This document shows positions 20,938 to 34,049 of a stretch of DNA of 64,000 nt, piece after piece (the first letter of the stretch is position 1; the number at the start of each line of letters is the position of its first letter). The DNA is taken from positions 27,165-91,164 of the forward strand of contig CAYHFW010000007.1 in NCBI GenBank assembly GCA_964355975.1. The letters run 5' to 3'. The notes below the pieces were generated by a model. It made no database searches. It had not been told where the DNA came from and worked only from the letters and a program-made list of their open reading frames with translations. This DNA is from an uncultured Singulisphaera sp. (lineage in GTDB: Bacteria > Planctomycetota > Phycisphaerae > Phycisphaerales > SM1A02). The translations under genes and the position numbers were made by a program.

Positions 20938-21627
20938 ATGAAGAAGCCGACCCTCATTCTCGTCTCGTTGCTCGTGAGCGCGGTGATCGTTGCGTGCGGC
21001 GATTCGCAGCCAGCGCCCGAAGTGCGTGATGCATCGCCACAAACGCCCGCGGCGCAGACGCCCCCACCTACGAAAGTGGCTGATGCGAAGAAAGCAGATT
21101 CGAAGAAGGCGGATGCCAAGAAGCCTGACGTGAAGCAGCCTGAGGCGACGCAGCCCGATGCCAAGCAGCCTGACGCAATTGCGACAGCGCCAACTGAACC
21201 AACCGATGCACCTGCGGCTGCGAAGCCGCCGAAGAGTTCGAAGAAAAAACCAGCGGCGAAAGCGCCTGAACCTGAGCCTGCTCCAGTTGCAGAACCCGTC
21301 GTTGTAACTGCGCCCGCTTCAGATGTTCCACCTGAATTGCAGAAGTATGCAGCGATGGCTGCGACTCCGAAGTTTCGCGAGTTCACCGCGCTCGCCACCG
21401 AGCGACACACGCTGCAGCTGCGCGCCTCTCAACTGCGCCTCGAAATGCGGGGAGTTGTCGCGACCGATGCGCAGCTCGCTGCGGTTGCTGCGGTCCAGAA
21501 AGAAATCGGAAAAGTCGGCGACCGAATGGACAGTTACGTTTCAGGAAAGACATGGACCCAAGACGAACTCATCACGATGGACTTCATCGTCTCTGAGCAG
21601 ATGCGCTTGCGCCCACCACCAGGTTGA
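20938..21627 (+). CDS. Lipoprotein with Lys/Ala/Pro-rich low-complexity region
   Basis: MKKPTLILVSLLVSAVIVAC|GD (lipobox). A KKADSKKADAKKPDVKQPEATQPDAKQPDA tract, then a helical C-terminal domain. Confidence 0.6.
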   Translation: MKKPTLILVSLLVSAVIVACGDSQPAPEVRDASPQTPAAQTPPPTKVADAKKADSKKADAKKPDVKQPEATQPDAKQPDAIATAPTEPTDAPAAAKPPKSSKKKPAAKAPEPEPAPVAEPVVVTAPASDVPPELQKYAAMAATPKFREFTALATERHTLQLRASQLRLEMRGVVATDAQLAAVAAVQKEIGKVGDRMDSYVSGKTWTQDELITMDFIVSEQMRLRPPPG

Positions 21628-21638
21628 ACGAGTAACAC

Positions 21639-21872
21639 ATGGCAATTCAATGCAATATCGATCATCGCGGAAAGTTGATTCGCCTCATCGCGGGTGCGAT
21701 GCTTGACACGACAGGATTGGGGCTGCTCGCCTTTCGATTCGTCGGCGTTCTCTCGGGCGATTGGCCTTGGTTTGTCGGAGGCGCGGCGGCCGTTGTGGGA
21801 ATGTTTCTTGTGCTCGAGGGGGTACTGGGTTGGTGCGTCGTGCGTGCTTTGGGTGTGAAAACTCCGGTGTGA
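21639..21872 (+). CDS. DUF2892 (YgaP-like) small membrane protein
   Basis: 77 aa. N..R..R..AG near the N-terminus, two hydrophobic helices, and C-terminal GWCVVRALGVKT resembling the G.CP.Y..LG..T end of DUF2892. Confidence 0.55.
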   Translation: MAIQCNIDHRGKLIRLIAGAMLDTTGLGLLAFRFVGVLSGDWPWFVGGAAAVVGMFLVLEGVLGWCVVRALGVKTPV

Positions 21873-21896
21873 GTTCGCCCGGCGAGAGAATTCGCG

Positions 21897-23825
21897 ATGT
21901 CGTGCAACCACAGCCACTCGAATCCCACATCGGGTGCGACCAATCCACTGTGCAATCCCGATCTGCTCTCGGCTCTTGCGTGTGGCGCGCTGCTTGGTGG
22001 CGGATTGTTCGCGCACTTTGCTGGGGCAAGTGAGAGCGTCACGATGTATCTGCTGCTCGCCTCGTGCGCGGCCGGCGGATGGCACGTCACCATCCGATCG
22101 TTGCAGCAACTCGCGCGCTTGCAGTTTGATGTCGACCTGTTGATGTTGGTTGCGGCGATCGGTGCGGGGTTGATTGGCAGGCTTGAAGAGTCTGCGATCT
22201 TGCTCTTGCTCTTCTCGCTCGGTCATGGGCTTGAAGGTCTTGCGACCGACCGCGCGCGCAACGCGATTCGCGCGCTTGGAACGCTGACTCCGACCGTTGC
22301 GCGTGTCGTTCGCGATGGTCGCGATGTTGAACTTCGCGTCGAAGAACTCGCCGTGGGAGATCTCGTGCGCGTGATGGCCGGCGAGCGCATCGCAGTCGAT
22401 GGCTGCGTGCGTGAGGGAACGAGCGCCGTCGATCAGAGCCCCATCACTGGTGAGAGTGTGCCCGTCGTGAAAGAAGTTGGTGATGATGTCTTCGCGGGCA
22501 CAGTCAACGGGGATGGATTGCTGCTTGTGGCGACGACCAAGTTGGCATCGCAGACGACGATGGCGCGCATGGTGAAACTCGTCGAGGAGAGTCAAGCAAA
22601 CAAGGGACGCACGCAGCGGCTGACCGAGCGCTTCACCCGCATCTACACGCCGATTGTGCTCGTGAGTGTTCCAACGATCATCGTCGTGTTGACTTCGTTT
22701 TTCGGCATGACGTTTGCCGATGCATTTCTGCGCGCGATGGCTGTGCTCGTTGGGGCATCCCCCTGCGCGCTTGTGATTTCGACTCCAAGCGCCGTGCTCG
22801 CGGGTGTCGCGCAAGCGGCGCGCAGCGGCGTGCTCATCAAGGGCGGAATGCATCTCGAATCGCTTGGCATCGTGCGCGCGATCGCCCTCGACAAGACTGG
22901 AACGATTACGCAGGGGCGTCCTGATGTGACCGATGTGATTGCGGCTGATGGCTTCACGCCGCGCGATGTTCTCGCGATCGCTTTTGCGCTCGACCAACAC
23001 TCATCGCACCCCCTTGCGCTCGCGGTGGTGCGACGGGCGAAGCGCGATGGAGTATCTGCGCGCGCAGTGCGCGATGTTCGCGCGATTCCTGGACGCGGAG
23101 TTGAGGGATTCATCGACGATGCCCGCGCGCTCATCGCAGGACCGCGCTCGTTTGCTGCGGGTGACATCGCCGCCATCCCGCCGCAATTGCAGACGCAGAT
23201 TGATCTGCTCGAGAGCCATGCGCGCACCGTCTCAGTGATTGCGCTTGGCAACCAGTGCGTTGGAGCGATCGCGCTCGCAGATCAGGTGCGGCCTGACATC
23301 GCGACAATCTTTGCGCGCCTGCGGTCGCTGGGCATTCGTCGGCTCGTCATGCTCACTGGCGACAACCCGACGGTCGCGCATGCTGTTGCGGCTCCGCTGG
23401 GCATCGATGAAGTCAAGGCGGGGTTGCTTCCCGAACACAAGATCACTGAAGTGCAATTGCTCATGAAGGAACTCGGAGCAGTCGCGATGGTTGGCGATGG
23501 GGTCAACGACGCGCCGGCGCTCGCCGCAGCAACGGTTGGTATTGCGATGGGTGCATCGGGCACCGATGTCGCGCTCGAAGCCGCAGATGTCGCGTTGATG
23601 GCAGACGATCTCTCAAAGTTGCCATTCGCTGTGGGCCTCAGCCGCGCAGCGCGGCGCACGATCATGCAGAATGTGGCGATTTCTCTGGGAGTTGTGGCGA
23701 TGTTGATTCCGTTGGCACTCTTGGGAATGGTGCCACTCAGTTGGGCCGTCGTCTTGCACGAGGGCAGCACCGTGGTCGTCGCGTTCAACGCACTTCGCTT
23801 GTTGTTCTATCGGGAGTCCAAATGA
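21897..23825 (+). CDS. Heavy-metal P1B-type ATPase, P1B-4-like (SPC / HEGST), no N-terminal HMA domain
   Basis: DKTGTITQG phosphorylation site, GDGVNDAPAL hinge, transmembrane GASPCALVIST and VLHEGSTVVVAFNALR. The short His-containing N-terminus is MSCNHSHSN. Confidence 0.9.
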   Translation: MSCNHSHSNPTSGATNPLCNPDLLSALACGALLGGGLFAHFAGASESVTMYLLLASCAAGGWHVTIRSLQQLARLQFDVDLLMLVAAIGAGLIGRLEESAILLLLFSLGHGLEGLATDRARNAIRALGTLTPTVARVVRDGRDVELRVEELAVGDLVRVMAGERIAVDGCVREGTSAVDQSPITGESVPVVKEVGDDVFAGTVNGDGLLLVATTKLASQTTMARMVKLVEESQANKGRTQRLTERFTRIYTPIVLVSVPTIIVVLTSFFGMTFADAFLRAMAVLVGASPCALVISTPSAVLAGVAQAARSGVLIKGGMHLESLGIVRAIALDKTGTITQGRPDVTDVIAADGFTPRDVLAIAFALDQHSSHPLALAVVRRAKRDGVSARAVRDVRAIPGRGVEGFIDDARALIAGPRSFAAGDIAAIPPQLQTQIDLLESHARTVSVIALGNQCVGAIALADQVRPDIATIFARLRSLGIRRLVMLTGDNPTVAHAVAAPLGIDEVKAGLLPEHKITEVQLLMKELGAVAMVGDGVNDAPALAAATVGIAMGASGTDVALEAADVALMADDLSKLPFAVGLSRAARRTIMQNVAISLGVVAMLIPLALLGMVPLSWAVVLHEGSTVVVAFNALRLLFYRESK

Positions 23826-24799
23826 AAACCCTGTTCTGTCTTTGCGCACTCCTCGCGGTTGGTGCATTGCGCGACGATCCAGCCAAGCCTGTCGATGTGA
23901 TTCGTGCGGCGATTACGGCTGAATCGATCCGCGCGGCAGTGACCGAGCTCTCGAGCGATGAGATGGGCGGCCGCTACTACCGCAGTCCGTTCGCAGAGAA
24001 GGCAGCGAAATGGATCGAGGCTCGCTTCGATGCGCTTGCACTCGCGCGCGGCGCGACCAAAGAGTCGTATCGCCAAGCGATCGACAAGAATGTTGAGAGT
24101 GCGCCAAACCTGATCGCCACACTCGCGGGCACTGGCGCGGGATACATCATCGTGAGTGCGCACTACGACCACCTCAGGCCCAAGCGCACTGGCGACGACA
24201 AGATTCACAACGGAGCCGATGACAACGCATCGGGCGTCTGCGGGATGCTCGCAGTTGCACAGGCGATGAAAGACTTGGTCGCCAAGGGCGCAGGGCCATC
24301 GTGCACAATTCTCTTCATCGCATTCAACGGTGAAGAGGCTGGACTTCTTGGATCACGCGCATTCGTGAAGTCGCCCACCGTGCCACTCGGCGAGATTCGC
24401 GGTGTCTTCAACATGGACATGATCTCGCGTGGTCCGGCACACGAGATTTTCATCGACGGCGGAGCAGTCGGTGCAACAGTTGTCGATGCGCTCAAAGCCG
24501 CCAACGAATCAATCGGTATGAAGTTGCGAGTGAATGAGCATCCTGATTGGCTCGACCGAAGTGATCAAGGACCCTTCTTGGCGAAAAGTGTTCCCGCAGT
24601 GCTCTTCTCGGTCGAAGATCACGAGGACTATCACAAGGTGAGCGACGAAGTTTCAAAGATCGACGCCGCCCTCGCCGCCGAGACTGCCCAGCTCGTCGCC
24701 CTTGCTGCGCTCGAGATGTCGAAAGCCAAGTTCGTGGCGCGGACTGATGGTGTGAAGGTGCCCGCGGACGGCAGTGGCGGCGATTCCATCGCAAAATAG
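23822..24799 (+). CDS. M28-family zinc aminopeptidase, secreted
   Basis: Start MKTLFCLCALLAVGA overlaps the ATPase stop (ATGA). SAHYDH, GADDNASGVCGMLAVAQ, FNGEEAGLLGSRAF, NMDMI and EDYHKVSDE. Confidence 0.85.
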   Translation: MKTLFCLCALLAVGALRDDPAKPVDVIRAAITAESIRAAVTELSSDEMGGRYYRSPFAEKAAKWIEARFDALALARGATKESYRQAIDKNVESAPNLIATLAGTGAGYIIVSAHYDHLRPKRTGDDKIHNGADDNASGVCGMLAVAQAMKDLVAKGAGPSCTILFIAFNGEEAGLLGSRAFVKSPTVPLGEIRGVFNMDMISRGPAHEIFIDGGAVGATVVDALKAANESIGMKLRVNEHPDWLDRSDQGPFLAKSVPAVLFSVEDHEDYHKVSDEVSKIDAALAAETAQLVALAALEMSKAKFVARTDGVKVPADGSGGDSIAK

Positions 24800-24839: not shown

Positions 24840-26192
24840 TTACGGAGTCTCGCGCGGTGCATCTGGCACTGCGCGGCCATGCGGATCGGCGCGCGGCGGT
24901 GTGCGGTCACCGCCCGCGGCATCTTCGCGCGCGAGTCGTTCGCGCAGCGCAGCATCGGTGATGTGCTCGAGCACCATCGCCGTTGGGTGAACGTGATCAC
25001 GTGCGATGGCGAGCCGTTGCATGAGATAGATCTCCCACAGACGGTGGGATCGCACCAACGAGGCTCCTTCGCTGCGTCCATGCGCGGTCAAGTTCACGAG
25101 ACCACCCGCGCACTCGATGCGGCGATCCCAGACGAGGCAGTGCACCGCGAGACGCGCGAGCAAGCGTGGAATCTCTGCCCCGCGCACAAGCAAGTCGCGC
25201 AATTGTGCTGCATCGACGGTGCGACCATCCTCATCGAGACGCCAGAGCAAACCGATGGCATCTTCGCGCGCGATGCGCAGTGTGAGCAGCCAACGATGCG
25301 CTTGTCGCACGACCAATCCGCGGCGGGGAGCCACGATGATGCAGACCACGAGCAGCGCGCCAAGCGTCGCGGCGATCGATCCAGCGCTTGATGCGTCGCG
25401 TCCACCGAGCACGAGTGAAGGAGCGAGCGATGTCGCGACCCAGTGGCCGACGACTGCACCCACCACTCCGATGCACATTGCGCCGACGATGACTCCGGCG
25501 AGTCGATCGCTGAAAAGTCGCGCCGCCACCGCTGGAATGATCATCATCGCAACAACAAGAATGCTGCCCACCGATTCGAAGGCCGCGACGCAGGTTGCCG
25601 CGGCCATGCCAAGAATGATCGCCTCCATCAATTGTGGACGGCACCCGAGCGTCTTGGCGAGCGCTGGATCGAATGCCATCACCTTGAGTTCTTTCCAGAA
25701 GATCGCCGCGACGACAATGTTGAGCATCGTGACGCCGCCGAGCACCAACACCGCGCGTGGCACTTCGATGCCCGCGATGAGTTGCGAATCAAGCGGCGCT
25801 AACTCAACTGCGCCGTAAAGCACACACGACGGGTCAAGGTCGACGCGGTCGGCAACTTGCACAATCAAGATGAGTCCCAGCGCGAACATCGTTGTGAAGA
25901 CGATGCCGAGTGCTGCTCCAGAGTCGATGCGCGCGAATCGCGCGAGGCTCGCAGAGACGAGCGTCACGAACAATCCCGCAGCGGCGGCTCCAAGAAACAT
26001 CCAGAGTGGATCGCGCGTGCCCGAGAGCAAAAACGCAACGGCGATGCCAGGCAAGACCGCATGAGAGATCGCGTCGGCGAGCATCGAGGTGCGACGAACG
26101 ACAAGAAATGCGCCAGGGATCGCACACGCGAGCGCTCCGAGTGCGCCGATGGCGATGATCCATCCATCGACTGCGAGAGTCCACGCGTTCAT
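24840..26192 (-). CDS. ABC-3 family metal-transport permease fused to a C-terminal DtxR/TroR-like repressor domain (YtgC-YtgR-like)
   Basis: The N-terminal ~290 aa is a typical ABC-3 permease (MLADAISHAVLPGIAVAFLL...). The C-terminal ~150 aa (about 24840-25295) reads REDAIGLLWRL...LTAHGRSEGASLVRSHRLWEIYLMQRLAIARDHVHPTAMVLEHITDAALRERL...DPHGRAVP. That matches a DtxR-family HTH plus metal-binding/dimerisation pattern. Confidence 0.8.
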   Translation of the reverse strand: MNAWTLAVDGWIIAIGALGALACAIPGAFLVVRRTSMLADAISHAVLPGIAVAFLLSGTRDPLWMFLGAAAAGLFVTLVSASLARFARIDSGAALGIVFTTMFALGLILIVQVADRVDLDPSCVLYGAVELAPLDSQLIAGIEVPRAVLVLGGVTMLNIVVAAIFWKELKVMAFDPALAKTLGCRPQLMEAIILGMAAATCVAAFESVGSILVVAMMIIPAVAARLFSDRLAGVIVGAMCIGVVGAVVGHWVATSLAPSLVLGGRDASSAGSIAATLGALLVVCIIVAPRRGLVVRQAHRWLLTLRIAREDAIGLLWRLDEDGRTVDAAQLRDLLVRGAEIPRLLARLAVHCLVWDRRIECAGGLVNLTAHGRSEGASLVRSHRLWEIYLMQRLAIARDHVHPTAMVLEHITDAALRERLAREDAAGGDRTPPRADPHGRAVPDAPRETP

Positions 26193-27076
26193 GCGTGCGC
26201 ACCTCGAACGGTCGCTGCACGCGCACGCGCGAGCAATCCGCGGCGAGGGGCAAACACGAGCGCGAGCACGAAGAGACCTGCTGCAAAGAGCACGATGCAG
26301 GGTCCAGTCGGAAGCTTGGGTGCGTACGAACTCACGAGCGTTCCGCCGACGCCGCTCACCGCGCCCATCGCTGCAGCAAGCGGCAACATCGTTGTAAATC
26401 GGTCAGTGCACAATCGCGCTGCGGTCGCTGGCAAGATCAACAACGCGAGAATCAGAATGAGCCCAACCGCCTGCAGCCCTGCGATCACGACGGCTGTGAC
26501 GATGATGAGCACGAGAGCGTCGAGCCACCGCACAGGCCGTCCAATGGCGCGCGCGAACGACTCGTCGAAGCAGAGCAGTCGCAGTTCTTTCGTGAGTAGT
26601 ACGACGAGCGCAACACAGACGAGCGCCACAATCGATGCAGCATGCAAGTCGCTCGCAACCATCGATGCAGCATGACCAAGAATGAAACTCGCAAGACCCG
26701 CTTGATGTCCGCCCGGAGTCGTTTGAATCACCGTCAAGAGCGCAGTGCCCAATCCAAAGAACGATCCCAACACGATTGCCATCGCGGTCTCATCACTCGT
26801 GCGCGCGCCGCGGCGAATCGCGAGCACCGCGATCACTCCTGCGATCGCCCCCGCTGCTGCCCCCGCGAGCAGCGCCCACGGTTCTTTGCCTGTTCCACCG
26901 ACTGCGACCGAGATGAGATATGCCGCGGCGATTCCGGGCAGTGTCGCGTGACCGAGTGCATCACCCATCAGTGCGCGGCGCCGCAAGAGCAGCAGACATC
27001 CCGCGAGTCCACCCGCGCCGCCGAGCAATGCCGTGGATGCCGCAACGACTTGCGTGTTGTAATCGAACCAGTTCAT
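26189..27076 (-). CDS. ABC-3 family metal-transport permease
   Basis: LMGDALGHATLPGIAAAYL... with a multi-span profile. 4-nt overlaps with both neighbouring genes. Confidence 0.9.
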   Translation of the reverse strand: MNWFDYNTQVVAASTALLGGAGGLAGCLLLLRRRALMGDALGHATLPGIAAAYLISVAVGGTGKEPWALLAGAAAGAIAGVIAVLAIRRGARTSDETAMAIVLGSFFGLGTALLTVIQTTPGGHQAGLASFILGHAASMVASDLHAASIVALVCVALVVLLTKELRLLCFDESFARAIGRPVRWLDALVLIIVTAVVIAGLQAVGLILILALLILPATAARLCTDRFTTMLPLAAAMGAVSGVGGTLVSSYAPKLPTGPCIVLFAAGLFVLALVFAPRRGLLARARAATVRGAHA

Positions 27077-27888
27077 CCGAGCTGCGCCTTCTGCATGCGC
27101 TGCGCCGCCTCATCGAGCAGCGTGAGTCGGCCGCCATATGTTTCGCGAAGTCGCTCAGGCGTCATCGTTGTTGCAGTTGGTCCCGCGGCAACGACGCGTG
27201 TGTTGAGCAGGATGACCCAATCGAAATACTCGCGCGCCGTCTCGAGGTCGTGATGCACAACGATGACCGTGCGTCCTTCGCTGCGCATGCGCCGAAGCAC
27301 TGCGATGATCGCCTGCTCTGTCGCCGCATCGACCGATGCGAATGGTTCGTCCATCAGATAGAGCTGCGCCGACTGCGCGAGAGCGCGCGCGAGAAAGACG
27401 CGCTGTTGCTGTCCACCCGAGAGTTGTCCGATCTGCTGATGCACCTCATCTGCAAGCCCTACCGCATCAAGCGCCTCGCGCGCTTTGATGCGCTCGCGCT
27501 TTCCGACCCGGTGAAACAAGCCGAGCTGACCGAAGGTTCCCATCATGACGACTTCGAGCGCGCTCACCGGAAAATCCCAGTCAACGCTCTCGCGCTGAGG
27601 CACGTACCCAACGATCGCCCGCTGCTGTTCGTACGGTTTGCCGAAAACGCTCACTTTGCCCGACGAAACTGGAATCAGCCCGAGGCAAGCCTTCAACAGC
27701 GTGCTCTTGCCCGCTCCATTGGGACCGATCACACCGACGATCGACTGCGCTGGAACATCCAAGTCAACATCCCACAACACCGGTCGGCGGTGATACGCCA
27801 CGGTCAATGCATGAATCGAAAGTGGACTCTTGCTCGAATGCTCACACCCAACTGAGTTGACTGGGGCTGGCGCGGGCGACGTGGTCAT
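27073..27888 (-). CDS. Metal ABC transporter ATP-binding protein (TroB/MntB/ZnuC-like)
   Basis: Walker A GPNGAGKSTLLKA, signature LSGGQQQRVFLARAL, Walker B LYLMDEP. Confidence 0.92.
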   Translation of the reverse strand: MTTSPAPAPVNSVGCEHSSKSPLSIHALTVAYHRRPVLWDVDLDVPAQSIVGVIGPNGAGKSTLLKACLGLIPVSSGKVSVFGKPYEQQRAIVGYVPQRESVDWDFPVSALEVVMMGTFGQLGLFHRVGKRERIKAREALDAVGLADEVHQQIGQLSGGQQQRVFLARALAQSAQLYLMDEPFASVDAATEQAIIAVLRRMRSEGRTVIVVHHDLETAREYFDWVILLNTRVVAAGPTATTMTPERLRETYGGRLTLLDEAAQRMQKAQLG

Positions 27889-28868
27889 TTGGCGTTCTCC
27901 TCTGACGTGGTGGATGGACGAGCGAGTGACGATGCGTCGCCGCCGAGCGCTGTGACGATCGTCCGCGCGTTCGTCATGATCATTCCCGCGTATGTGCCTT
28001 CATAGGTGCCGGCCGCTCCCATCGCGTCGGAGTAGAGCGAGCCACCAATGATGAGCGCGTGGTTGCGCGCACGCGCCCCTTCAACGAGCGCAAGCACATT
28101 CTTCTCAGAGACGCTCGTCTCGACAAAGACAGCGGGCACATTGCGCGCCACGAGAAGGTCGATGAGCGTTCGAATATCAGCGAGTCCAGACTCACTCTCG
28201 GTCGAGATGCCCTGAATCGCCAAGACCTCGACCCCATAATGGCGACCGAAGTATGCGAACGCATCGTGTGCGGTCACGAGCACGCGTCGCTTCGAATCAA
28301 CCGTTGCAATCGCCGCCGCGATCGCGCGATCGGCGCTCTGCCACACCCGCACGAGCGCCTCGACATTCGCACGGTACTGCTGGGCATTTGCAGGATCGCG
28401 CTTGGCGAGTTCGTCTGCCACATGCAGCGCGCACTGCGACCAGATTGCGGGATCCATCCAAATGTGTGGATCAGGATGCCCATGCGATTCTTCGCTGTGC
28501 AACTGTTGTGATTGCGGCACTCCCGCCCCCGCTTCGATCACAAGTCGGCCTCGGCGGCGCAACTTTGCAAAGACATCGCCCATGCGCCCCTCGAGCATGA
28601 GTCCGTTGGCGACGACGACATCGGCCGCCGCGAGTGCCCGCACATCTGACACTGTCACTTTGTAGAGGTGCGGGTCGACCCCTTCGCCCATCAACGTCGT
28701 GACATCGGCGCGGTCGCCCACGATGCGCTGCACCATGTCTCCGATCATCCCGGTGGTCGCCACGATCTTGAGCTTCGAAGAGCTTTCTTGCCCATGCACG
28801 TGCACACACAAGCCGATCGCGGCGAGCGCCGCGGCGAACCAAACACGCAGTTGGGCGACTGTAGCCAC
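27885..28868 (-). CDS. Metal ABC transporter substrate-binding protein (TroA/MntC/ZnuA cluster A-I)
   Basis: Signal-like N-terminus, DPHLYKV, HGHPDPHIWMDP, and the family's AHDAFAYFGRHYG and FVETSVS blocks. GTG start at 28868. Confidence 0.9.
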   Translation of the reverse strand: MATVAQLRVWFAAALAAIGLCVHVHGQESSSKLKIVATTGMIGDMVQRIVGDRADVTTLMGEGVDPHLYKVTVSDVRALAAADVVVANGLMLEGRMGDVFAKLRRRGRLVIEAGAGVPQSQQLHSEESHGHPDPHIWMDPAIWSQCALHVADELAKRDPANAQQYRANVEALVRVWQSADRAIAAAIATVDSKRRVLVTAHDAFAYFGRHYGVEVLAIQGISTESESGLADIRTLIDLLVARNVPAVFVETSVSEKNVLALVEGARARNHALIIGGSLYSDAMGAAGTYEGTYAGMIMTNARTIVTALGGDASSLARPSTTSEENAK

Positions 28869-28897
28869 GGCTACATACTAGGCACTCCCCATGTTCT

Positions 28898-29335
28898 GTG
28901 CAACAATGCGAACCGATCATGCCGACCACTGCATCACGAGAGCGATTCATCAAGACCCGCCGCGACCACGCGACCGAGACCTTCGACGACTACACCGAGG
29001 CGATCGACGAGATCGCCACCACCTCTGGATCGTGCCGAGTGCGCGATTTGGCGCTCTTCATGCGCGTTTCACATGTGACGGTGGTGCGGATCGTGCGCCG
29101 ACTCGTGATCGAAGGACTCGCAGTCAAAGATCCTCACGGACCGATCTCGCTCACACCGACCGGCATACGACGCGCCCGCGCAGCGCGTGCCCGCCACGCG
29201 ACGGTCATTGCCTTTCTGGGATGCATCGGCGTACCCAGAGCGCAGGCCCTGCGCGACGCTGAGGGAATCGAACATCACGCGAGCGCGACGACGCTGCGTG
29301 CGATGCGACGCTTTATCGCGCGCAGTGCGAAGTAA
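28898..29335 (+). CDS. mntR: MntR-type (DtxR family) metal-dependent transcriptional regulator
   Basis: DDYTEAIDEI....CRVRDLALFMRVSHVTVVRIVRRL...LTPTGIRRARAARARHATVIAFL...DAEGIEHHAS. Two-domain MntR size. Divergent from the importer operon. The start could instead be M at 28919. Confidence 0.8.
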   Translation: MQQCEPIMPTTASRERFIKTRRDHATETFDDYTEAIDEIATTSGSCRVRDLALFMRVSHVTVVRIVRRLVIEGLAVKDPHGPISLTPTGIRRARAARARHATVIAFLGCIGVPRAQALRDAEGIEHHASATTLRAMRRFIARSAK

Positions 29336-30326
29336 CAAACGCATTCATCATCACATCGATGCGCTCGACTGCTTGCAAGACGCGCGCACGAGAGAGTCGC
29401 CCACCTGCGAGCGCCTCTGAGAGCGCCTCGATCGCGTTTCGCTGCCGGTCGAGTCGATGGCAGATCAGCAGACAATCCACCCCCGCTTCAATCGCGCGCA
29501 CGGCGCCTTCGCCGATTCCCATCGTGCCTGCGATCGCTTCCATTTCGAGGCAGTCGCTGAAGACGACTCCGTCGAACCCGATCTCATCGCGCAGCACTCC
29601 TTCGATGACCTTTCGACTCATTGTGGCGGGCACTCCCTCATCGATCGCTTCAAAGACAACGTGAGCCGTCATGATCGAGGCGACCTGCGCGTGCGCTGCG
29701 GCGGCGAACGGGGGCAATTCGACTGCACGCAGTCGATCAATCGCGTGCGGCAACCGAGGAAGCGCAAGGTGGCTATCGACATCGGTATCGCCGTGCCCTG
29801 GAAAGTGCTTTGCACATCCTGCGACTCCACCTGCCTGCAGCGCCTCGATGAATGCGACCGCGCACTCCGACACGACCGATTGATCTCGACTGAACGAGCG
29901 GTCACCAATGACCGGATTGGCTGGATTGCTATCGACATCGACCACGGGCGCGAAGTCGAGATCGATGTTTGCACTGCGCAGTTCGCGCGCGAACACCGCT
30001 CCAACACGCGCCGCTTCAGCCGCGCCAACACTTCCAACTTCGCGCATCGGTCCAACGGCAGTCATCCCGTCGCGCAGACGCACGACCCGCCCGCCCTCAT
30101 GATCAAGCGCGATGAACACACGTGCGCCATCGATTTCTGCGGCGCACGCTTTCAGCGACGCCGCGATCTGCGCGAGTTCTGCGTGACTCGACGCGTTGCG
30201 CGCGAAGAGAATCACACCGCTCACTCCAGCGTGAATCATCTCACGCGCGGCGTCGTTGACGACCGGCCCATCGAAGCCCACACACAAGAGCCGAGCAACC
30301 AACTTTCGATCTGCTTCCGTTGCCAT
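29313..30326 (-). CDS. nagZ: Beta-N-acetylhexosaminidase (GH3, NagZ)
   Basis: KHFPGHGDTDVDSHLALP and DHEGGRV. Start at MATEADRKLVARLLCVGFDG (30326). The 3' end overlaps the mntR 3' end by 23 nt (convergent). Confidence 0.88.
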   Translation of the reverse strand: MATEADRKLVARLLCVGFDGPVVNDAAREMIHAGVSGVILFARNASSHAELAQIAASLKACAAEIDGARVFIALDHEGGRVVRLRDGMTAVGPMREVGSVGAAEAARVGAVFARELRSANIDLDFAPVVDVDSNPANPVIGDRSFSRDQSVVSECAVAFIEALQAGGVAGCAKHFPGHGDTDVDSHLALPRLPHAIDRLRAVELPPFAAAAHAQVASIMTAHVVFEAIDEGVPATMSRKVIEGVLRDEIGFDGVVFSDCLEMEAIAGTMGIGEGAVRAIEAGVDCLLICHRLDRQRNAIEALSEALAGGRLSRARVLQAVERIDVMMNAFVTSHCAR

Positions 30327-30402
30327 CGCCAAACGATAACGGCATTGTGCGCATCGCACCCGAGCAATTTGCTGTAGAGATAGCGATGTGCAGCTCTCAC
30401 AG

Positions 30403-31629
30403 ATGACGCGCGCGGTTCGAGAACGCAACTACGCGATCTTCGCGGTCGGCTTTGCCTTTTCGGGATTCGGCCTTCAGATGCTCACGACCGTCATCCTCTG
30501 GGATCTCTGGCTTCGCACACACGATGCGCTGGTGTTGGGAATGGCTGGACTCGCCCGCGCGCTTCCTGTCGTTGCGCTTGCGCTCGTCTCTGGTCACGTT
30601 GCAGACCGCCACAGTCGAAAGCGCATCATCGCGCTGACACAGTTCGGATTCGTCGGCGTCTGCGCGTGCTTCGCGCTTGCGAGTGCAATGCAGGCGCCGA
30701 TTTGGATCTGGTACGCCCTGCTCGTCGCATCAGGGTGCGTGCGCAGTTTCAATGGTCCCAGCCGCAGTTCACTCTTGCCGCTCCTCGTGCGACCGGAAAA
30801 CTTCGAGAACGCAGTCACTTGGAACAGCGGCATCTTTCAGGCGGCAGCGGTCCTAGGTCCCGTCACTGCAGGGGCGTTGCTCGGACTCGGCGTCGAGAGT
30901 TGGGTGATTTTTCTAATCTGCGGCGCACTCATCGGCGTCATGGGCGTGCTCGCACTGCAATTGCATCCGCGCGAAGAGGCACGCGCCAACGCAACGCTCA
31001 CGCTGCGCTCACTCTTCGCAGGAATGAGCCACATCTACAAAGAGCGTGCGATTCTTGCGACGCTGTCACTCGATCTCTTCGGCGTGCTGCTCGGAGGCGC
31101 GACTGCGCTCTTGCCGATCTACGCCGATGAGATTCTTGGTGGTGGTCCGATGCTTCTTGGATGGCTCAAGGCATCGCCATACATCGGCGCATTTCTGATG
31201 GCGGTGTGGATCGCCGCGCGCCCGCGCATGCGCTACGCCGGTCCCGTGCTGCTGCTGTGTGTTGGAGTCTTTGGTGCGTGCATGATTGTCTTTGGACTCT
31301 CCACCTCGATCTGGATCAGTTTGGTCGCGCTCTTCATCTCAGGCGCCGTCGACAATGTCAGCGTCATCATTCGACACACCCTGGTGCAGACGCGCACTCC
31401 AAACGAATTGCGCGGACGGGTGAGCGCCGTGAACTCGCTCTTCATCGAGTGCAGCAACGAACTCGGCGCATTCGAAAGCGGACTCGTCGCGAAGTTCTTT
31501 GGACCAGTGATCAGCGTGGTGAGCGGCGGAATAGGCACACTCATCGTGGTCGGATCAATCGCAGGACTCTTTCCAGAGTTGCGCAGACTTCGCACGATGG
31601 TTCAACAAGAGCCCGACCAGACGACGTGA
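30403..31629 (+). CDS. MFS transporter (EntS/MFS_3-like)
   Basis: About 12 hydrophobic spans. The N-terminus MTRAVRERNYAIFAVGFAFSGFG is typical of this subfamily. An alternative GTG start lies at 30388. Confidence 0.8.
   Translation: MTRAVRERNYAIFAVGFAFSGFGLQMLTTVILWDLWLRTHDALVLGMAGLARALPVVALALVSGHVADRHSRKRIIALTQFGFVGVCACFALASAMQAPIWIWYALLVASGCVRSFNGPSRSSLLPLLVRPENFENAVTWNSGIFQAAAVLGPVTAGALLGLGVESWVIFLICGALIGVMGVLALQLHPREEARANATLTLRSLFAGMSHIYKERAILATLSLDLFGVLLGGATALLPIYADEILGGGPMLLGWLKASPYIGAFLMAVWIAARPRMRYAGPVLLLCVGVFGACMIVFGLSTSIWISLVALFISGAVDNVSVIIRHTLVQTRTPNELRGRVSAVNSLFIECSNELGAFESGLVAKFFGPVISVVSGGIGTLIVVGSIAGLFPELRRLRTMVQQEPDQTT

Positions 31630-33975: not shown

Positions 33976-34049
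<74 letters not shown>

Follow-up and report, generated by a model that had tools for sequence, protein, structure and literature searches.

A TroD-position ABC-3 permease continued in frame by a DtxR/MntR-like module in an uncultured planctomycete

The window analysed here is a stretch of 64,000 nucleotides from an uncultured Singulisphaera sp. (contig CAYHFW010000007.1), and the gene under study lies at positions 24840..26192 on its minus strand. In this gene a permease of the ABC-3 family of ATP-binding cassette (ABC) transporters runs on, within a single open reading frame (ORF), into a genuine two-domain module of the DtxR family. Judged from sequence, the gene encodes the second (TroD-position) transmembrane (TM) subunit of a divalent-metal ABC importer of the TroABCD type, with a TroR/MntR-like C-terminal module. 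We infer that the module binds the imported metal, using a ligand set of the Mn2+/Fe2+ type, and gives negative feedback on uptake. Because YtgR of Chlamydia is cleaved from YtgC and represses its own promoter, the single most likely mechanism, tentative as it is, would by analogy be that of a released YtgR-like repressor.

The ORF starts with ATG, is the last gene of its operon and encodes 450 aa, with a calculated mass of 47.5 kDa. Its permease domain occupies aa 1-289 (25326..26192, minus strand), and the two-domain DtxR/MntR-like module follows directly, spanning aa ~306-440. In Pfam, PF00950 (ABC-3) matches aa 14-256 with an E-value of 2e-41 and 142.7 bits against a cut-off of 20.1. PF02742 (Fe_dep_repr_C) matches aa 369-422 with an E-value of 4.5e-11 and 43 bits, where the cut-off is 27; the tail alone obtains 45.3 bits. 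Both domains are above their cut-offs and the ORF contains all the peptides quoted in the first-pass annotation, i.e. the permease-DtxR fusion described there is real. The Thermus/Deinococcus-type MntR model of NCBIfam aligns over aa 326-445 of the fused protein. Residues 15-161 of the tail align to chain residues 7-143 of 8pvt (Deinococcus DR2539; E-value 2.5e-9, phmmer), and residues 20-155 to residues 5-131 of SloR (5cvi). The alignment of the tail with solved two-domain DtxR-family repressors is end to end.

An AlphaFold2 (AF2) model of the fused protein, built on 61 homologs, has a mean predicted local distance difference test (pLDDT) of 87, and the pLDDT is above 90 over aa 290-410. Past the last TM helix the model contains alpha1 (293-321), alpha2 (328-339), alpha3 (343-355), a beta-hairpin wing (359-368) and alpha4-alpha6 (370-426). 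In minus-strand coordinates, the AF2 helix formed by the junction and by DtxR helix alpha1, which carries the conserved D311, corresponds to 25230..25316. The winged helix-turn-helix (wHTH), i.e. alpha2-alpha3 at aa 328-355 and the wing at aa 359-368, corresponds to 25089..25211 according to AF2 and Foldseek. It is followed by the dimerisation/metal-binding domain (aa 369-422, 24927..25088), which is defined by PF02742 and by invariant alignment columns, and by a DPHG motif (aa 436-439, 24876..24887), which is conserved in related tails and aligns to the 'DPHG' of DR2539 and 5zr4. After the DPHG motif the SH3-like domain is absent, and the protein stops at aa 450. The segment REDAIGLLWRLDEDG, previously called 'HTH-like' (HTH, helix-turn-helix), is present; it covers mainly the metal-ligand helix alpha1, and the HTH proper is at aa 328-355.

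Foldseek assigns the two parts of the model to different families of structures (template modelling scores, TM-scores, are normalised by target length). Residues 1-290 match PsaC (7kyp) with a TM-score of 0.84; against the individual chains of 7kyp the E-value is 1e-12, the TM-score 0.78-0.85 and the identity 27-29%. The tail matches the DNA-bound two-domain IdeR (2it0_C) over 137 columns, with a TM-score of 0.80 and a root mean square deviation (rmsd) of 2.3 A, and it also matches structures of DtxR (TM-score likewise about 0.8), DR2539 and SloR. According to AF2, Foldseek and the 8pvt alignment, a winged-helix fold is present upstream of the dimerisation domain. The earlier reading of the tail as a complete DtxR-family module therefore stands, since alignment, AF2 and Foldseek all give two domains.

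In the AF2 model the permease domain has nine TM helices. The loops at 33-35, 85-88, 165-185, 226-230 and 290-302 are basic and the loop at 115-145 is acidic; by the positive-inside rule, these charges place the N-terminus outside and the C-terminus inside. The coupling-helix loop, which is cytoplasmic, is found at about aa 165-185, and the tail is on the same side. The DtxR-like tail is therefore predicted to be cytoplasmic, as the topology check proposed with the fusion had anticipated. At the junction, the plain permease of the same operon ends 17 aa beyond an APRRG motif, and in the fused permease 13 aa separate APRRG from RIAREDAIG, which belongs to alpha1. Neither an in-frame ATG nor a sequence resembling a Shine-Dalgarno (SD) site was found near the junction, and we therefore rejected an internal translation start as the source of a separate tail product.

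Many database 'proteins' of 160-180 aa (P0125, P0132, P0246, P0251, P0261 and others) begin at a conserved MMAV inside the last TM helix and run through the tail. In all likelihood these entries come from wrong gene calls on truncated contigs; less probably, they have a true internal start and give a tail on a single-TM anchor. At this place the window protein has SIAA.

The 120 best homologs come from independent assemblies and are 43-96% identical; each of them has 432-467 aa and contains both domains. Searched with HMMER, 1.84 billion cluster representatives yielded 1613 matches to the tail with E<=1e-3 and 182 with E<=1e-10. Among 151 sequences that were classified (HMMER matches and P0002), 58 are full-length fusions, 44 are fragments that still contain permease sequence spanning the junction, and most of the remaining ones start inside the last TM helix. 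A word-indexed search for homologs of just the tail was insensitive, giving two matches, and is superseded by these exhaustive HMMER searches and by the full-length searches. When one genome of each species was scanned by tail-only alignment, at least 600 stretches matched and at least 597 were confirmed. The best 80 loci of this survey and four orthologous contigs were analysed as a set of 84 loci (L001-L084). Most of the best 80 are from Planctomycetota (Phycisphaerae, Pirellulales, Planctomycetales, Gemmatales, Isosphaeraceae, Kuenenia), including the cultured Poriferisphaera, Aeoliella and Botrimarina, and the others are from Verrucomicrobia, Bdellovibrionales, Desulfobacteraceae and other metagenome-assembled genomes (MAGs). 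Because the survey matches are widespread and come mostly from Planctomycetota, the fusion architecture is routine in this phylum. The public annotation of the fused genes reads just 'metal ABC transporter permease'.

The closest named homologs of the window are MAGs of Phycisphaerales/Planctomycetota, in agreement with the first-pass annotation, which had assigned the DNA to a non-chlamydial member of the Planctomycetes-Verrucomicrobia-Chlamydiae (PVC) group. It had also implied that the fusion is new outside Chlamydiae, and this does not hold. According to a review (PMC5599777), Thompson et al. 2012 found orthologous permease-repressor fusions in 11 bacterial phyla, and in our own scan the tail is present in at least 597 genomes, each representing a species.

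At least one fused ORF is present in 82 of the 84 loci, and DtxR-like tails are found on both adjacent permeases in 61 of the 84. The double fusion of L004 (4700-7356) was confirmed by Pfam. The tails of permease 1 and permease 2 are distinct paralogs, each conserved on its own. Permease-2 tails, the type found in the window, have D311, R318, H402 and D436-P-H-G at 92-100% and E406 at 66%. Permease-1 tails are characterised by H311, R314, E318, RSW(S/T) at the start of alpha3, D402, D406 and S436. An HRLWE motif, E409, H410 and G372 are common to both types. The fused permease of the window is on average 46.7% identical to the permease-2 group vs 30.5% to the permease-1 group, and the plain permease 46.8% to the permease-1 group vs 30.1% to the permease-2 group. 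Since the plain permease belongs by orthology with permease 1 and its nearest outgroup orthologs are fused, the clade formed by the window and L001-L003 has probably lost the tail on permease 1.

The metal ligands were numbered after DtxR, MntR and TroR (PMC2628430), and their columns were examined in alignments of 61 and 28 sequences and in 143 tails. D311, which lies in alpha1, is the equivalent of DtxR M10 and MntR D8 and is 100% conserved in permease-2 tails. H383, E387, H402, E409 and H410 are the equivalents of DtxR H79, E83, H98, E105 and H106. Except for position 406, the ligand equivalents are invariant in permease-2 tails. Position 406 corresponds to DtxR C102 and MntR E102; it is Met in the window (24975-24977) and in the majority of 60 aligned homologs, with Glu in the 66% of permease-2 tails overall given above. 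Met at this position may represent a shift in metal preference. Within the DPHG motif of permease-2 tails, D436 and P437 are each conserved at 100%, H438 at 92% and G439 at 95%.

We compared the identity to the window in a close clade of 13 homologs (59-96% identical overall) and in 47 distant homologs. For the permease it is 0.78 in the close and 0.50 in the distant set, for alpha1 0.90 and 0.56, for alpha2-alpha3-wing 0.52 and 0.21, and for the dimer/metal domain 0.77 and 0.49. The wHTH fold is kept in every fused homolog examined, and several Arg are retained in alpha3 and the wing.

The fused gene belongs to an operon with the order substrate-binding protein (SBP), ATPase, plain permease and fused permease, in which each of the three internal junctions is an ATGA overlap; the gene order had been described before, and PF01297, PF00005 and PF00950 confirm it. 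All genes are on the minus strand. The SBP (27885..28868, 327 aa, signal peptide) is a TroA-like periplasmic metal-binding protein (PF01297, E-value 1.3e-76), the ATPase subunit (27073..27888) has 271 aa (PF00005, E-value 1.8e-27), and the plain ABC-3 permease in the TroC position (26189..27076) has 295 aa (PF00950, E-value 3e-56). The two permeases of the window share only 30.6% identity. The SBP matches T. pallidum TroA (1toa/1k0f) with E-values of 6e-69 (1toa) to about 1e-68 and 235-236 bits, and the next solved structure obtains 131 bits. Because the SBP is by far closest to TroA, the operon is of the tro type, with a TroR-like module joined to the gene in the TroD position. The candidate ligand motifs of the SBP are DPH, DPH, AHDAF and YSDA, which would give a His-His-His-Asp site. 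The synteny of the locus is kept in L001-L004.

A free-standing MntR-type regulator is transcribed divergently from the operon, as had been noted. It aligns over the full length to the NCBIfam MntR model NF008273 with an E-value of 8.7e-40 and 135.9 bits, below the cut-off of 153, and matches PF02742 with an E-value of 8.9e-9. The gene had been placed at 28898-29335, with a GTG start. Its orthologs in the same position in L001 and L002 have 138 aa, which makes ATG 28919 the more likely start, i.e. 28919..29335 on the plus strand and also 138 aa. With this start the control region between mntR and the operon is 50 bp long.

The only operator-like element in the control region is TGTAGCCACGGCTACA, the palindrome TGTAGCC-AC-GGCTACA at 28860..28875. 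It is the single match in the window, where 0.03 are expected by chance. An inverted-repeat search of the control region called none; the palindrome was spotted by eye and confirmed by a DNA search and by orthologs. In L001 and L002 it is a perfect 18-mer, ATGTAGCCATGGCTACAT, and it is kept in L003 and L004, where the fused protein is 47-60% identical; L004 has two copies. Of 64 loci, 32 have a TGTAGC box upstream of the SBP gene, the background being 0.066 matches per kb. Loci with an adjacent free mntR have it in 15 of 20 cases vs 16 of 41 for the others (Fisher p=0.013). The window box and the enterobacterial MntR consensus AACATAGCnnnnGCTATGTT (PMC1698941) have in common a TAGC-N4-GCTA core and its spacing. 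In 22 homologs that cover an equal phylogenetic range, the recognition helix of free MntR, GVSHVTVxRIV, is conserved to at least 90%. Because of the consensus core, the enrichment next to mntR and the conserved recognition helix, the TGTAGC-N4-GCTACA box is most likely the operator of free MntR.

The palindrome abuts a -10-like TAGTAT (28880-28875, minus strand), and the start codon of the SBP (GTG 28868-28866; ATG in L001 and L002) lies inside the palindrome, 7 nt past TAGTAT. A promoter scan did not report any promoter of the sigma-70 type in the intergenic region, and TTGCAC-N17-TAGTAT has only 3/6 and 5/6 matches to the sigma-70 consensus. Since the start codon is within the palindrome and just after the -10-like hexamer, the operon mRNA would, if the promoter reading is right, tentatively be leaderless. 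An Rfam scan of the window found no Mn riboswitch, its sole match being a tRNA at 33976-34049 on the plus strand.

A second class of palindrome, TTTTGA-N4-TCAAAA, accompanies nine fused operons that have no TGTAGC box (L006, L014, L019, L034, L056, L057, L059, L075 and L081), where it lies no more than 260 bp upstream of the SBP gene. It matches the core of the T. pallidum tro operator, TTTGATGCATCAAA (primer sequence, PMC2628430). A search for a second, tail-specific operator turned up this class, in other loci; it is absent from the window. It had been proposed that two DtxR-family domains could act on one control region; what we see is one MntR-type palindrome, associated with free MntR and not with the tails. 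As to the metal, the adjacency of mntR and Asp311 point to Mn2+/Fe2+, and the TroA-like His-His-His-Asp SBP and Met406 leave Zn2+, Fe2+ or others possible.

If the tail is a released repressor, a protease would cut inside the permease or at its end and so free a C-terminal fragment. Loaded with metal, the freed fragment would dimerise and repress transcription, acting alongside free MntR as the probable owner of the TGTAGC-N4-GCTACA box. The full-length alignment of the tail, the confident AF2 fold, the near-invariant ligands, the retained wHTH and the TroA-like SBP, as in troABCDR, all speak for such a repressor. However, several observations weigh against it. No other structured region of the fused protein evolves as fast as the HTH segment. 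PF01325, the Pfam model of the DtxR HTH, has no match in the window tail even at E<=1, and of the profile check proposed for the tail only the part on the metal/dimer domain came out positive. In 28 diverse tails (E<=0.01) PF02742 matches 28/28 and PF01325 0/28, whereas the free MntR of a related locus is matched by PF01325 with an E-value of 1e-12. Residues 293-321 are predicted by AF2 as one unbroken helix, with no flexible linker. The operators resemble those of free regulators (MntR and TroR boxes): TGTAGC boxes are enriched beside free mntR genes, a free DtxR/TroR-like gene is near five of the nine TTTTGA-class loci, and no covariation of the tail alpha3 with the TGTAGC or TTTTGA class was seen. 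In most genomes there are paralogous tails on both subunits, and a DtxR domain needs a dimer partner, which in the single-tail clade has probably been lost with tail 1.

Much of this evidence would also be expected if the module never left the permease and read no DNA, serving as a permanently tethered allosteric metal sensor in a form of trans-inhibition. Metal bound between D311 of alpha1 and H383/E387/H402/M406/E409/H410 would move alpha1, continuous as it is with the last TM helix, and lock the importer when the cell is replete, and transcription would be left to free MntR/TroR-type regulators. We regard this as doubtful in absolute terms, yet nearly as likely as the released repressor. 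It agrees with alpha1 and the ligand/dimer domain being best conserved (0.90/0.77) and alpha2-alpha3-wing worst (0.52), with the Pfam counts for the two halves of the tail, with the unbroken helix, with the distinct and separately conserved ligand signatures of the tails on both permeases in 61 of the 84 loci, and with operator boxes that track free regulators and not the tail alpha3. A more specific scenario, possible but again on the doubtful side, is that in Planctomycetota and their allies an ancestral heterodimer of tail 1 (H311/D402/D406) and tail 2 (D311/H402/E406/DPHG), formed inside a single transporter, acts by way of the last TM segment to stop transport once metal builds up, the window clade being a derived single-tail state. 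A tethered sensor must be set against the retention of a whole wHTH fold with basic alpha3 and wing over a very wide divergence, and against the chlamydial fusion, which is a proven DNA-binding repressor. Because only one permease has a tail in the window, an intramolecular dimer is impossible there. A DtxR domain in such a role is also without experimental precedent. In MetNI C2 and ModBC a cytoplasmic ligand-binding domain on the importer shuts uptake when substrate accumulates; these regulatory domains belong to the ATPase subunit, their fold is not related to that of the DtxR module, and we know of no DtxR-type domain in trans-inhibition.

The kept wHTH fold, with no linker or evident processing site, would also fit a membrane-tethered repressor that binds DNA without cleavage, like ToxR/CadC or an artificially anchored LacI, directly coupling the abundance and occupancy of the transporter to the occupancy of the promoter at the membrane. 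In E. coli full-length YtgC also repressed, and an anchored LacI has been raised as a possibility (PMC5599777). Such an arrangement is improbable here: the rigid helix would hold the domain against the membrane, a dimer would require two transporters in the single-fusion clade, the HTH is poorly conserved, and in Chlamydia the cleaved species is the one seen and the sole one in elementary bodies (PMC5599777). The fast-evolving HTH and the loss of the permease-1 tail in the window clade might instead mark the tail as a decaying, functionless relic of a former troR fusion. This is very unlikely: in 143 tails drawn from many orders neither the ligands nor the residues of the dimer interface vary, AF2 predicts the fold with confidence, and truncations are not seen among close homologs. 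Least credible of all is an assembly or frameshift artefact that joins a truly separate troD and troR, which the first-pass annotation had named as a possible refutation. The 120 best homologs are contiguous two-domain ORFs from independent assemblies, and since they share the architecture the fusion is not a sequencing artefact; the 58 full-length fusions and 44 junction-spanning fragments among the 151 classified sequences, the 82 of 84 loci with a fused ORF and the lack of an ATG or SD-like sequence at the junction all agree. The artefact and relic readings are effectively excluded, and the released repressor keeps its place as the most likely of the mechanisms considered.

Convergent with the operon is a gene for a P-type ATPase of 642 aa (21897-23825, plus strand) with SPC and DKTGT motifs; the SPC motif presumably indicates a transition-metal exporter beside the importer. 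It overlaps by ATGA with the gene of an M28 metallopeptidase with a signal peptide (23822-24799, plus strand), the true start of which is probably ATG 23822 (325 aa). L001 and L003 have the same pair in synteny. The M28 peptidase was considered as the protease releasing the tail and is unlikely in that role, since its signal peptide makes it extracytoplasmic. On the other side, mntR is flanked by a glycoside hydrolase family 3 gene (29313-30428, minus strand) and an MFS_3 (EntS-like) transporter gene (30388-31629, plus strand), both of which recur in L001 and L003. Long antisense ORFs (up to 488 aa), for example at 21534-23000 (minus strand) and 25117-25818 (plus strand), were read as artefacts of the high GC content.

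A fusion outside Chlamydiae matters little by itself, the architecture being already reported as widespread. In the searchable literature we found no description of the double-fusion majority, of the paralogy of the tails or of the divergent HTH. Free-living and partly culturable Planctomycetota (Gimesia, Aeoliella, Botrimarina, Poriferisphaera) carry the fusion almost universally, usually on both permeases. Because the fusion is near-universal and mostly double there, with a divergent DNA-binding part and operators like those of free regulators, this phylum is a tractable setting for a question left open in Chlamydia, namely whether a repressor domain that is part of a permease regulates genes, and in what way. 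The same fusions also allow direct gating of transport to be tested. A tethered heterodimeric sensor would, if true, put the DtxR fold to a new use and give ABC importers a new mechanism of trans-inhibition.

Among known systems, the permease body resembles PsaC of PsaBC (7kyp). There PsaC is the only permease chain and has no regulatory tail, unlike the window operon with its two paralogous permeases, one of them carrying a DtxR module. The tail has the same fold as DR2539 (8pvt), SloR (5cvi), IdeR (2it0) and DtxR, over about 137-141 columns with an rmsd of 2.2-2.6 A, and shares with the solved DtxR-family regulators the H79/E83/H98/E105/H106 equivalents and the DPHG motif. Those regulators are soluble homodimers with conserved recognition helices, whereas the window module is covalently joined by its N-terminal helix to a membrane protein and has a divergent HTH.

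The comparison with C. trachomatis YtgC-YtgR (CT069, YtgCR) is by description and not by sequence, from published accounts (PMC5599777, PMC7755916, PMC6504234). It is likewise one ORF with an ABC-3 permease and a C-terminal DtxR/TroR-like module, it belongs to an SBP-ATPase-permease-permease operon (ytgABCD), its full size is similar (~49 kDa there vs 47.5 kDa calculated here) and its host is also in the PVC superphylum. In Chlamydia YtgR is cleaved from YtgC as a 28-30 kDa product and is a metal-dependent repressor of its own operon (PMC5599777, PMC7755916). Fe2+-dependent DNA binding and cleavage are demonstrated for YtgR and putative for the window fusion. The fused subunit in Chlamydia is the first permease, the TroC-like YtgC, followed by a plain YtgD (PMC7755916, PMC5599777). 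Since ytgC precedes ytgD, the window fusion is by position on the other subunit, i.e. the YtgC-YtgR architecture proposed for it applies to the fusion in general but not to the subunit. In Chlamydia no other iron-dependent regulator is known, whereas a free MntR adjoins the operon here, and the HTH of YtgR is recognisable by sequence, with 'high identity to TroR', whereas that of the window tail is missed by the Pfam model.

The troABCDR operons of Treponema pallidum and T. denticola have the same order of SBP, ATPase, permease, permease and regulator, and among solved SBPs TroA of T. pallidum is by far the nearest to the window SBP. Like the window tail, T. pallidum TroR and MntR are without an SH3-like domain and have Asp at the M10/D8 position; at position 102, however, TroR and MntR have Glu and the window tail Met. 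The window lacks the operator core of TroR, TTTGA-N4-TCAAA, which is found upstream of some related fused operons. In Treponema troR is a separate gene, while in the window the module is in frame with the fourth, troD-position gene. The most fitting description of the fused gene is a TroD::TroR-like fusion within an operon of the tro type; by its sequence it shares the architecture of YtgC-YtgR and belongs to a known and widespread kind.

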